Shown piece after piece: positions 8,546 through 35,374 of a DNA stretch of 64,000 nucleotides. How positions within the stretch are numbered: position 1 is the stretch's first letter; the number at the start of each line of letters is the position of its first letter. The DNA comes from a virus. Taxonomy: Duplodnaviria > Caudoviricetes. Under the pieces are notes generated by a model. That model had not been told where the DNA came from. It was given only the letters and a program-made list of their open reading frames with translations, and ran no database searches. The stretch covers positions 1 to 64,000 of the IMG/VR virus record IMGVR_UViG_3300028591_000126, one strand, 5' to 3'. The position numbers and the translations under genes are program-made.

Positions 8546-8601
8546 CTCTTATCTTATATGGTTAAAAAACTATTCAATTAAGAATAGCTTTTTGTTTTTA
8601 C

Positions 8602-8902
8602 TGGCAGGGGTCGTCGGTAGTCGCACCGACGCATGCGGGTTTGCGTACCACTATAACTTTCGTTACCATTTCTGTTTGTGGTCTGGACTATATCTTAGCC
8701 ATGACTTTCATTTTAGGCTGAGGATCATCTAGTCTCTACGGGTGAACTTATCTTCCCTCGGTATTGCCATTTTACAGGTTTCACCGATATTATCCTCTCC
8801 ACTTATAAAGTTTCCTTTATAAGGCACCAACCTTTGCTAATTGTTCTTTATTTTTGAACTAGCCGGGTAAAGTCCGCTGTTCTACTCTTAAACCAGACCC
8901 CT
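8602..8902 (-). tRNA. tRNA-Trp(UCA), opal-decoding, interrupted by a group I intron (exons 8870-8902 and 8602-8643)
   Basis: Acceptor AGGGGUC/GACCCCU with G73 and CCA (Trp-type identity). Exon 1 ends GCGGACUU and exon 2 starts CAAACCCGC, giving loop CU-UCA-AA. Confidence 0.85.
8644..8869 (-). ncRNA. Group I intron (IC3-like, 226 nt, no ORF)
   Basis: P2 CUUAUAAAG-GAAA-CUUUAUAAG; UCGGUGAAACC...GGCAAUACCGAG; GUAGAGACUA and AUAUAGUCC core elements; terminal G. Layout parallels the Azoarcus and Anabaena tRNA introns. Confidence 0.9.
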
Positions 8903-9187
8903 ATATTATACTCTGAATAATAGATTATTTAACACATTTCTATATCCAGATATTTATTTTACATATTAATATACAGTTTACTTATTGCGTTTTTGAGTAT
9001 TTTTATGAAAAATTTTTAAATTATAACATTTATTATAATCATCTTTTTTCATTTTTTTAAATGGATTTAACTTATTAAATGCTTTAATTGATAAAATTAA
9101 AGATAATAATAAGCATACGCTTAAAATAATAAATAATGGAGCATATAATTCCATATAAATCACCTCTTATATAATTAAAAATATTTA

Positions 9188-25902: not shown

Positions 25903-26349
25903 CTACTCACTCTTTACCTCAATGAATATTGGAGTTATAACCTGCTTGTGAAATTTAATAAACACTTCGTGCTTACCAAACATTTTAATATTGCTCATTG
26001 ATAGTTGCTTTGCTTCGATACTTGAATAAGGCTCATAAAGTTTATTTATTTCAGCTAAAACCTCTTTCTTAGTTACTGCTTTATTTGTGGATCCATCTGG
26101 CATTGGTTTTCTATAAAAGGTAAACACTTTGCCTCTTAACTCTTCATCTCTACGCATGCATAATAATAAGAAATCGTTGGCTTCATCCTGAGCTCTATCA
26201 ATATCTCTTTGCCTCATAGCAAGATTTAATTCTGTTGCTAAAGCAGCTTTACCTTGAGCAATTAAAAAATTACCATAACCATTTGCAACATCTATAATAT
26301 CTAATTCTTTACCTTTTCCCTTAATATCTTGTTGTAAAATAATCTTCAT
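25903..26349 (-). CDS. rplI: Ribosomal protein bL9 (phage-encoded)
   Basis: MKIILQQDIKGKGKELDIIDVANGYGNFLIAQGKA N-domain, helical linker, IKMFGKHEVFIKFH C-domain; 148 aa. Confidence 0.9.
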   Translation of the reverse strand: MKIILQQDIKGKGKELDIIDVANGYGNFLIAQGKAALATELNLAMRQRDIDRAQDEANDFLLLCMRRDEELRGKVFTFYRKPMPDGSTNKAVTKKEVLAEINKLYEPYSSIEAKQLSMSNIKMFGKHEVFIKFHKQVITPIFIEVKSE

Positions 26350-26357
26350 AATATCAC

Positions 26358-26708
26358 CTATTCTATATAATCATCATAAATTAATAATTCAGGATAATCT
26401 GTTGGAAGATAGCCTGAGTTGGAAGCAATAACTACTCTGCCTTCACTATTAACTAAGCTTAAAAGATCCTCTAATGAAGCTAGTTCTATTGTCCAGTAAT
26501 CTTTTTTAATACTTCTACATATGCCATTTGCACTAACTTTATGATCAAAACCTTCATTAAGAAAATTATAACCTGTATGATTTTCATAATCTTCAAATGA
26601 TTTAAATCCATACATATCATAGGCAGTTAAAGTTTCTTTGATGCTATTTTTACATGGTGGAGTCTCATCATAATAGCCGCTAGAAGCCCTTTCAATCACA
26701 AATTTCAT
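26358..26708 (-). CDS. Hypothetical protein
   Basis: ORF with GAGGTG RBS and SigA-type promoter. Confidence 0.65.
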   Translation of the reverse strand: MKFVIERASSGYYDETPPCKNSIKETLTAYDMYGFKSFEDYENHTGYNFLNEGFDHKVSANGICRSIKKDYWTIELASLEDLLSLVNSEGRVVIASNSGYLPTDYPELLIYDDYIE

Positions 26709-34019: not shown

Positions 34020-35374
34020 TTGAACCTTACACAACTAAAATAGTGTAATTCCTACTTCTTAGAGAACAGCTCTGTATGTATACATAAGTACATAATACAA
34101 AGTCTTACAATCTCTCCATAGGCTTGAAATCCCGTAGTTCCTACGGTACTAATTTATTTACTAAATTAACCTTAAAGCTTCATCTAAAATATTTTTAGCA
34201 GCGTTAATATCTCGATCGTTTTCAGATCCACACATAGGACAAGTCCAAAATCTAACACCTAAATCTTTAGTAATTGGAAATTTATTCTTACAACAATTAC
34301 AAGTTTGAGATGAAGCAAAAAATCTTCCAACTTTGACTACTTGAGAATTATATATTCTAGCTTTATAGTTCAGCATAGAGTAAAATTTGTTTCAAGAAAC
34401 ATCATTAATTGATCTAGCTAATTTATGATTTTTAGTTAGCCCTCTAACATTTAAATCTTCAATACCTATAATTTGGTTTTCTCTTACAAGTTTTGTCGAT
34501 TCTTTATGTAGAAAGTCATTTCTCTGATTAACAATTTTTTCATGTAGTCTTGCGACTTTTATTCTAGCCTTTTCCCTATTAGCTGAAGCTTGTTGCTTTT
34601 TAGCTAATTGTTTTTGAAGTCTAGCTAACTTTTTTTGACTTTTATTTAAATACTTAGGGTTATTAACAGTATTGCCATTAGAATCTGTATAAAATTTTTT
34701 TAAGCCAACATCAATACCTACTATACAACCATAATTTTGTAAATTAGGTGATTTAACCTCCGCAATAATACTTACAAAATATTTTCCAGACGGAGTTTGT
34801 TTAATAGAAGCATTTTTTATTTCACCATTTATCTCTCTAGAATATTTAATCTTAAGTAAACCTAATTTTGGAAACTTAAGCTTATTATTGGCAATTCGAA
34901 TATTATTGTTTACATTTTGACTTCTAAAGCTTTTATGATTATTATGCTTAGTTTTGAACTTAGGGAATCCAGAATGAGCTTTGAAAAAATTTTGATATGC
35001 TCTATCTAAATCTCTTAAGCTTTGCTGTAGTGCAATTGAATCAACTTCATTTAGCCATTGAAATTCTTCAGAAGACTTTAGTTCTGCGAGTAGTGAAGAA
35101 GTCGAATTATAGTTAACTTTATTTCCTAATTTATACTGCTTAATCCTAAAATCTAATGCTTGATTATAGACAAATCTACAACAACCGAAAGTCTTTTGAA
35201 TAAGCTCTTCTTGATATTTAGTTGGATAAATACGATATTCAAAACCTTTTAGCATAGTTAAACTCCTAAAAAAAATCAGGATTGCAGTTGCAGCCAACAA
35301 TCCTGATAATTTTATATATCAAAAGTATAAAATACTTTTAATAACATTATATTATACAATATGATAGCTGCAAT
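34020..35374 (-). mobile_element. IS200/IS605-family TnpB-only element (left end uncertain: 35374 or 35317)
   Basis: TTGAT upstream; omega-RNA-like 3' region (GTACCGTAGGAACTACGGGA...AGTAGGAA...hairpin...GGTTCAA) ending in TCAA; no tnpA. Confidence 0.75.
34161..35255 (-). CDS. tnpB: TnpB RNA-guided endonuclease, 364 aa with 1 TGA read as Trp
   Basis: YRIYPT..FGCCRFVYN, RuvC GIDVG / IEDL / DRDINAA, Zn-finger; INDVS*NKFYSMLNYKA puts TGA (34392) at the conserved W of DxSW. Confidence 0.9.

Follow-up and report, generated by a model that had tools for sequence, protein, structure and literature searches.

A predicted UGA-reading Trp-type tRNA split by a tRNA-Leu-type group I intron in a TGA-recoded gut phage

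A split tRNA gene on the minus strand

The stretch of DNA analyzed here, hereafter the window, comprises positions 1-64,000 of the 109,813-bp IMG/VR virus record IMGVR_UViG_3300028591_000126, a linear sequence with a GC content of 28% from a phage of the sheep gut. The record is a phage fragment (~56% complete by CheckV estimate) with nearly all genes on the minus strand, and a tail fibre and a tail sheath are among its PHROG and Pfam matches. The minus strand of the window, which also bears the adjacent tRNA array, carries a tRNA gene that is interrupted in the anticodon loop by a group I intron:

8870..8902, minus strand: tRNA exon 1, with the acceptor 5' strand AGGGGUC, the D arm, the anticodon-stem 5' strand GCGGA, and then C32, U33 and U34
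8644..8869, minus strand: group I intron of the IC3 tRNA-anticodon-loop type, 226 nucleotides (nt), without an open reading frame (ORF), ending in GUACG
8644, minus strand: omega G, the terminal G of the intron, which precedes the 3' splice site
8602..8643, minus strand: tRNA exon 2, with C35, A36, A37 and A38, the anticodon-stem 3' strand CCCGC, a 4-nt variable loop, the T arm, the acceptor 3' strand GACCCCU, G73 and an encoded CCA

Exon 1 reads AGGGGUCUGGUUUAAGAGUAGAACAGCGGACUU (8902-8870, minus strand) and exon 2 reads CAAACCCGC...GACCCCUGCCA (8643-8602, minus strand), and in silico the predicted ligated junction is GCGGACUU followed by CAAACCCGC. When the exons are joined between U34 and C35, ARAGORN calls a 75-nt tRNA(tca) with a 7-bp acceptor stem, a 5-bp T stem, a 4-nt variable loop and the 7-nt anticodon loop CUUCAAA, in which U33 precedes the anticodon UCA and position 37 is a purine. 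Shifting the junction by one base in either direction gives an anticodon loop of 6 or 8 nt in the same test. On unspliced DNA, ARAGORN makes no tRNA call at the locus, even in intron mode, and the Rfam tRNA model likewise makes no call at the unspliced gene. As the intron splits the gene, the UGA-reading tRNA is hidden from tRNA finders.

Tryptophan identity is conferred by G73 together with A1-U72, G2-C71 and G3-C70, and the whole set can be read from the sequence of the split gene. The acceptor and T stems are perfectly paired. ARAGORN labels the spliced form 'SeC', which reflects the tca anticodon alone. A tRNA-Sec has an 8/5 or 9/4 acceptor/T geometry and a long variable arm, and is ruled out by the 7-bp acceptor stem, 5-bp T stem and 4-nt variable loop. 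The locus thus appears to encode a Trp-type tRNA whose UCA anticodon would be assembled only through splicing. This agrees with an earlier interpretation of the same DNA made from its letters alone (the sequence-only reading), which proposed a Trp-type tRNA split by a 226-nt group I intron, a 7-nt loop with UCA after joining, and a gene that ordinary tRNA scans would miss. The exons, the Rfam match and the covariation described below bear out the first point, and the ARAGORN results, with tRNA(tca) called only at the junction of U34 and C35, bear out the other two.

Both in the window and in the whole record, ARAGORN lists 27 tRNAs and one transfer-messenger RNA (tmRNA), and neither tRNA-Trp, tRNA-Pro nor a tca anticodon is among these calls. 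The statement that the split gene is the only Trp-type tRNA therefore stands for the window and the 109,813-bp record, but as a claim about the phage it does not, given a record that is little more than half complete.

The intron and its relatives

The structural elements of the intron, all on the minus strand, are listed from its 5' end:

8836..8863, minus strand: extra 28-nt hairpin in loop L1, GCUAGUUC...GAACAAUUAGC, found by folding; a gap in the alignment of relatives
8825..8830, minus strand: internal guide UUGGUG, adjoining P2 and in the same alignment column as the guides of 46 relatives
8801..8824, minus strand: P2 hairpin with a GGAAAC loop and 7 covarying pairs (RNAalifold)
8720..8797, minus strand: P3 (GAGGAU 8797-8792 with AUCCUC 8725-8720), seen by covariation, enclosing P4-P5, P6 and the P7 5' strand
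8786-8759, minus strand: P4-P5, inside P3, with covarying pairs
8757-8740, minus strand: P6, inside P3, with covarying pairs
8734-8731, minus strand: P7 5' strand GACU, inside P3
8719-8697, minus strand: P8, covarying, within the segment 8683..8719 that also holds J8/7
8689-8686, minus strand: P7 3' strand AGUC, after J8/7
8644..8682, minus strand: P9 (ACCAC 8682-8678 with GUGGU 8651-8647), followed by A, C and the omega G
8665-8654, minus strand: P9b hairpin with a GAAA tetraloop, inside P9, with 4 covarying pairs

The group I model check called for in the sequence-only reading gave a match of Rfam Intron_gpI (RF00028) to 8839-8663 (minus strand) with 37.8 bits and an E-value of 5.7e-8 in a local search of 801 nt; the gathering score of this model is 50 bits. 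For tRNA introns, hits from 18-20 bits were accepted by Williams (2020, bioRxiv 10.1101/2020.01.27.920355). By blastn against phage records, the intron is 71% identical over 180 nt to the record LR756501 (L004), whose own intron scores 56.6 bits, has the guide UUU-G-AGU and splits a tRNA-Leu(UAA) as CUU/...G/AAAA. The phage's own tRNA-Leu(UAA) gene (10920-11006, minus strand), which represents the classical home of this intron lineage, is intronless.

A pattern built from the conserved P7-P9 segment and run over IMG/VR returned at least 119 loci. From these, 47 ORF-less intron copies, each with 8-9 exon bases per side, were aligned. At a mean column identity of ~58%, RNAalifold recovered the anticodon stem, P2, P3, P4, P5, P6, P8, P9 and P9b, with compensatory changes in 37 of 50 pairs. 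The window copy forms 44 of the 54 consensus pairs as aligned, and its P3 (GAGGAU/AUCCUC) and P8 (AGCC/GGCU) are complete once shifted by one column. P7 is 100% paired in the 47 sequences, with compensatory changes in two of its four pairs, and the middle pair of P9 is CG in 35 copies, UA in 10 and UG in 2. Judged by sequence and alignment, the intron is a member of the IC3 lineage known from the classical tRNA-Leu(UAA) intron, and it occupies the same site between positions 34 and 35. The extra L1 hairpin that the sequence-only reading had described is likewise found, at 8863-8836 in the fold.

Guide sequence and splice sites

In the window copy, UUG of the guide (8830-8828) lies opposite C35, A36 and A37 as P10, G8827 forms a wobble pair with U34, U8826 faces U33 in a mismatch, and G8825 pairs with C32. 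The placement of the guide just before P2, with U34.G and P10, had been part of the sequence-only reading and is supported by the shared column of the 46 relatives. P1, P10 and P7 were entered by hand for pair counts, with slid structures as controls; together they are 94% paired compared with 16-64% for the controls. Both U34.G and C32-G occur in 47 of 47 copies, and U33-A in 44 of 47. The window, L007 and L119 deviate, having GGUGCC in common and thereby a U.U; the mismatch noted earlier in P1 is thus real and not confined to the window.

The first P10 pair is U-A in 40 of the 43 Leu-type copies and G-C in all four UCA-type copies, and is unpaired in three. The guide base thus covaries with position 35, being G for C35 (UCA-type) and U for A35 (Leu-type). 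The endonuclease-bearing UCA-type introns, which are outside the alignment, also have G at the first P10 guide position. Taken together, the U.G pair, the P1 and P10 counts and the alignment indicate positional homology between these splice sites and those of the classical tRNA-Leu intron, and the only base required to change for C35 has indeed changed. Splicing after U33 (G8828.U33, C32-G, A31-U) was considered and rejected, as it gives a 6-nt loop and no P10 and does not fit L007 and L119, where position 31 is U.

Three UCA-type introns open with a sequence that nearly repeats the start of exon 2 (CAACCGU, CAACCUCG and UACCCGG), located at L007:7989-7995, at the start of the L119 intron and at 8869-8863 of the window. 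In L007, the mimic and exon 1 rebuild a perfect 5-bp copy of the anticodon stem. Such a start allows pairing with the anticodon-stem strand of exon 1, and this pairing is part of the minimum free energy (MFE) fold of the window copy.

Genetic code of the phage and a standard-code relative

Roughly 100 in-frame TGAs are found in the phage record. Most genes in the window have none, and TGAs are frequent at 82-109 kb, with TGA-rich frames that hold 11 TGAs in 1323 codons and 12 TGAs in 523 codons. It is chiefly in the structural and further late genes that TGA is used as Trp. Under code 11, 19 ORFs end in TGA, and each of them is part of a longer code-4 frame. Codon 320 of TnpB (TGA) lies opposite a conserved Trp of ISDra2 TnpB, and codon 76 of a lipase (TGA) lies opposite a Trp of Rhizomucor lipase. 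In PhoH, W252 (TGA) is opposite a Met of PDB 3b85, which is uninformative. A homologue search with the 523-aa late protein that contains 12 TGAs returned nothing.

A relative, G001 (159 kb, 94% complete, GC 28%; L009 (L132-L139)), was traced through the neighbouring Metallophos gene. It uses the standard code, its large ORFs being free of TGA. Its late genes are collinear with those of the phage at 27-56% protein identity. Opposite 29 in-frame TGAs, G001 has W 12 times, Y 7 times, a gap 3 times, L twice and five single residues; opposite TGG the profile hardly differs, with W 12, Y 7, F 4, L 3 and others. The Trp residues in TnpB and lipase, the G001 profile and the internal position of TGA-ended ORFs together show that TGA means Trp in this phage, in line with the recoding assumed in the sequence-only reading.

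G001 also has an intronless tRNA-Trp(CCA) at L009:5775-5848, after the tmRNA and before the Metallophos gene, which is the slot of the split gene. The acceptor ends of the two tRNAs are identical (AGGGG../..CCCCUGCCA), and the G001 tRNA-Trp(CCA) is the top global-alignment match among 58 tRNAs. Directly after it, at L009:5878-5949, is a tRNA-like element with the loop CUUCCAA, which scores 41.5 bits with the Rfam tRNA model and gets no ARAGORN call. On the ~56% complete phage record, neither a tryptophanyl-tRNA synthetase (TrpRS; PF00579) nor an RF-1 domain (PF00472) was found. For short loci at other UCA-type introns, the gain in ORF coverage under code 4 versus code 15 leans towards code 4 and is too noisy for use.

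A bL9 homologue (25903-26445, minus strand; Pfam L9 N- and C-terminal domains) contains four in-frame TGAs, and TnpB (34161-35351, minus strand), full-length with an E-value of 5e-106 against solved TnpB-type chains, can be read to its end only with the phage code. At genome positions 79298 and 103518 (L001, L003), TGAs stand 2-3 codons before TAA at the ends of long frames, and could be residual true stops or sense codons. The segment 1-5234 of the window (minus strand) encodes a PriA-like helicase behind an S-adenosylmethionine (SAM) riboswitch, an energy-coupling factor (ECF) S-component behind a tetrahydrofolate (THF) riboswitch, and a pyruvate formate-lyase, with the riboswitches at 1366-1451 and 2768-2861. 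These genes have no TGA and no counterpart in G001, and would be either host flank or auxiliary genes.

Flanking signals and RNA-library contigs

Three elements flank the split gene:

8905..8910, minus strand: TATAAT hexamer, ending 2 nt before the first base (+1) of the tRNA
9032..9061, minus strand: TTTAAA-18-TATAAT, the best sigma-70-like site on this strand, 130 nt upstream; candidate promoter
8564..8593, minus strand: AT-rich hairpin between an A-run and a U-run (-11.5 kcal/mol, z -5.7), not called by the consensus scan

The sequence-only reading took the TATAAT as the promoter of the split tRNA. The hexamer is present at 8910-8905, but at 2 nt from +1 it is too close to act as a -10 element, and the promoter scan, which matches the sigma-70-like consensus only, found no -35 element for it at the scan threshold. 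It is thus probably not the -10 element of this gene. Apart from the candidate promoter at 9032..9061, read-through from the tRNA array is a possible source of the transcript. The hairpin with its U-run at 8593-8564 is a probable intrinsic terminator by its predicted fold and stability, which fits the earlier suggestion that the gene has its own terminator; the consensus terminator scan requires three G-C pairs.

Evidence at the RNA level comes from contigs of two RNA libraries (runs X2 and X3) of one sheep-gut sample. Such contigs drop rare forms, and mature, heavily modified tRNAs are poorly captured in these libraries. The unspliced gene is represented by contigs covering 8601-8940 and 8740-8956, each with 0 differences. 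Their depth is similar to that of neighbouring genes, while several bins close by are uncovered, a pattern that speaks against uniform carry-over of DNA. Over 8648-8834, run X2 has a depth of 133 with loose ends at 8670 and 8702; this signal may derive from related introns of other organisms and was not used.

Other features lie near the tRNA array. Just upstream of it is a ROOL RNA (12816-13436, minus strand; 253 bits), whose contigs reach a depth of ~2800 in a sheep-gut RNA library, far above all else in the window. Part of this depth comes from relatives, since a number of the contigs carry differences at several positions. The phage tmRNA (9273-9635, minus strand; tag ANNINMAAVAAMNAPRAYALA) is located between tRNA-His and tRNA-Gln, and G001 has one in the same place. 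The motif GCTAAATTA occurs in the window in 12 exact copies on the minus strand (967, 6931, 12768, 16411, 16931, 21563, 22136, 28593, 35404, 37475, 57337 and 60519) and in 2 on the plus strand. One copy is just upstream of the tRNA array and none is directly upstream of the split tRNA; the motif is possibly a phage promoter element.

Mobility of the intron lineage

After in-silico splicing, the host genes among the matches listed include at least 101 tRNA-Leu(taa) and at least 12-14 tRNA(tca), the window among the latter. ORFs occur in L1 of the introns of L006, L008, L067, L071, L081 and L131. In the UCA-type introns of L006, L008 and L071 they encode PD-(D/E)XK proteins of PF11645, the family of I-Ssp6803I, and in L131 the protein is HNH-like. 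The endonuclease-bearing UCA-type introns are 590-630 nt long, and where these sisters have the endonuclease ORF, the window intron has only the 28-nt hairpin.

Intronless tRNA(UCA) genes are common in IMG/VR. In one metagenome, the intronless L168 equals the intron-bearing L067 save for 1 nt in the exons shown. Introns that lack an endonuclease are known to persist without a function in the usual homing cycle.

Many phage tRNA(UCA) genes have a second arm in the position of the variable arm, with a covarying stem of 5-6 bp and a loop CUCCAAA (or GUCCAAA) that copies the anticodon loop of tRNA-Trp(CCA), in tandem with the UCA arm. It is seen in intron-bearing genes (L014, L065, L066, L067, L071, L074, L081 and L131) and in intronless genes (L147, L149, L152, L153, L155, L156, L159, L163, L164, L167, L168 and L171). 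The tRNA in the window does not have it. The second arm might serve recognition by TrpRS or permit alternative folding.

Function of the split gene and role of the intron

The explanation that we consider probable is that the locus is an opal-decoding tRNA-Trp(UCA) gene that serves a TGA-to-Trp phage and is split by an IC3 intron, an endonuclease-less passenger of a mobile lineage. The precursor would be transcribed from the upstream promoter or through read-through of the tRNA array, and the intron would fold into P2-P9. The guide UUG-G-UG would pair with U34 (wobble) and C32 in P1 and with C35-A36-A37 in P10. By analogy with the known chemistry of the family, guanosine-initiated self-splicing would then join the exons and form the loop CUUCAAA. 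Once matured, and presumably charged by the TrpRS of the host, the tRNA would read UGA (and UGG). The lineage would have moved from tRNA-Leu(UAA) (CUU/AAAA) into tRNA(UCA) (CUU/CAAA) and compensated for the new site by changing one guide base. On this explanation, the intron would be a tolerated passenger and not a purpose-built timer, and in practice it would add a step that maturation cannot bypass and hide the gene from tRNA finders.

Several observations weigh against this explanation. In the tRNA itself, the anticodon-stem pair 31-39 is an A x C mismatch, the T loop UGCGACUA is 8 nt long with G at position 55 and departs from the canonical elbow, and the D loop AAGAGUA lacks the GG of positions 18 and 19. 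In the intron, P1 of the window copy is weak (U.G, U x U, C-G), and the Intron_gpI score is below the gathering score, so that a scan at the gathering threshold gives no match. A joint from 8870 to 8643 was not found in the contigs of the two RNA runs, although such contigs are uninformative either way for a rare or modified mature tRNA. Exact-pattern scans of IMG/VR with the exon-1/intron junction and the T arm of the window found no close sister phage. Lastly, the record is ~56% complete, and the rest of the genome may hold a further suppressor or a tRNA-Trp(CCA).

Part of this evidence would fit a decaying or non-functional gene, with UGA decoded by another suppressor encoded in the missing 44% of the genome: the incomplete record, the non-canonical T and D loops, the A x C pair, the weak P1, the Rfam score below gathering and the lack of a spliced joint in the RNA-library contigs. 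Yet all ribozyme helices are intact, with the omega G, the U.G pair and P10 in place, and neither the acceptor stem nor the T stem has a mismatch. L119, the tRNA(UCA) of a different phage, has the same unusual UGC T loop, which suggests conservation. In addition, the locus is present in RNA-library contigs, it occupies the syntenic slot of the relative's tRNA-Trp, and the roughly 100 in-frame TGAs need a decoder. Decay is thus an improbable account of the gene. A functional tRNA that inserts an amino acid other than Trp (e.g., Gly as in code 25), or a tRNA-Sec, is hardly credible. The 'SeC' tag that might suggest the latter is given by ARAGORN to every tca anticodon, and the 7-bp acceptor and 4-nt variable loop show no Sec architecture. 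Furthermore, A1-U72 and G73 are Trp-type and not Gly-type, which has U73 as discriminator, and the TGAs lie opposite W or Y in G001 and opposite conserved W in TnpB and lipase.

The sequence-only reading went further and saw the intron as a switch for the genetic code, in which slow or regulated splicing delays tRNA(UCA) and the late genes with TGA, and the precursor is harmless to a standard-code host. It is true that the anticodon exists only after splicing, that P1 has the U33.U mismatch in the window, L007 and L119, and that the exon-2 mimic at the 5' end of the intron pairs with the exon-1 strand of the anticodon stem in the MFE fold. The whole unspliced gene in RNA-library contigs, at a depth like that of its neighbours and next to uncovered bins, and the retention of the intron without an endonuclease gene also speak for such a role. 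However, the intron belongs to a mobile lineage that is mostly found in ordinary tRNA-Leu(UAA) genes, which need no gating; recoded phages commonly use an intronless tRNA(UCA), and near-identical exons vary in the presence of the intron (L067 and L168). The claimed private promoter is misplaced, and transcription alone can set timing. Any intron yields unspliced precursors, endonuclease-less introns generally persist in the homing cycle while functionless, and with an incomplete record the gene cannot be claimed as the only suppressor of the phage. This proposal is therefore unsupported: nothing observed here requires gating, and we regard a splicing-gated switch as unlikely. We are equally doubtful of a more limited form, in which the intron was co-opted in the sub-lineage of the window, L007 and L119, so that the U33.U mismatch and the exon-2 mimic make splicing slow or conditional.

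Relation to known systems

The closest known system is the IC3 intron of cyanobacterial and plastid tRNA-Leu(UAA), 'Leu.3Ug' (CUU/a...g/AAAA) in the nomenclature defined by Williams (2020, bioRxiv 10.1101/2020.01.27.920355). The window intron shares with it the site between positions 34 and 35, U(-1).G, the omega G, the guide before P2 and the core helices. In contrast, the host gene in the window is Trp-type with C35, and splicing would create an anticodon that reads a stop codon. In P10, the guide contributes G where the tRNA-Leu intron has U; P1 contains U.U, an extra hairpin is present in L1, and the phage is recoded. The intron-split opal suppressor in this TGA-recoded phage is well supported, and it is a variation on the known tRNA-Leu-type IC3 intron. 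A search of the literature, with most subscription journals outside it, found no published description of a group I intron in a phage suppressor tRNA.

Compared with the I-Ssp6803I-type PD-(D/E)XK protein (PF11645) in the tRNA-fMet group I intron, the sister introns L006, L008 and L071 encode PF11645 proteins, whereas the window intron is ORF-less. In Mycoplasma and mitochondria (code 4), a Trp-type tRNA with U34 reads UGA and UGG. There, the whole organism uses code 4 and the tRNA-Trp(UCA) gene is intronless; the phage gene is split, and the phage appears to impose its code on a standard-code host.

Borges et al. (bioRxiv 10.1101/2021.08.26.457843) detected TGA suppressor tRNAs in 35% of code-4 phages; they suspected undetectable tRNAs and did not mention tRNA introns. 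Like their recoded phages, ours is a low-GC gut phage with TGA-to-Trp in late and structural genes, a standard-code relative and a suppressor encoded in standard-code territory. Unlike their suppressors, this one escapes both ARAGORN and the Rfam tRNA model as long as the intron is in place. Lak megaphages, which are also alternatively coded, have introns within tRNA genes, including Tyr(GTA), Thr(TGT) and others; these were found by tRNAscan-SE in eukaryote mode and called 'enigmatic' (Devoto et al., 2019, PMC6784885), and a 2026 jumbo-phage survey repeats the observation. Unlike the intron described here, the Lak introns are neither identified as group I nor placed in a suppressor in the accessible part of that paper.

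Implications

The split gene is useful for the annotation of recoded phages and as a test case. Intron-split suppressors would be one concrete cause of suppressors being missed in TGA-recoded genomes, and a group I match followed by exon joining offers a procedure to recover those that are hidden. The phage and the collinear G001 form a clean pair for studying the origin of recoding. More broadly, the tRNA-Leu(UAA) intron lineage appears to have colonised phage tRNAs that read stop codons, with no more than one compensatory guide change. A reassigned stop codon would then depend for its decoding on a ribozyme reaction, which is a currently unsupported route to post-transcriptional timing of the code. 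If the intron had indeed been co-opted in the sub-lineage of the window, the UGA-decoding tRNA and with it the TGA-containing late and lysis genes would be delayed, and the change of code in this phage would be timed by a ribozyme.

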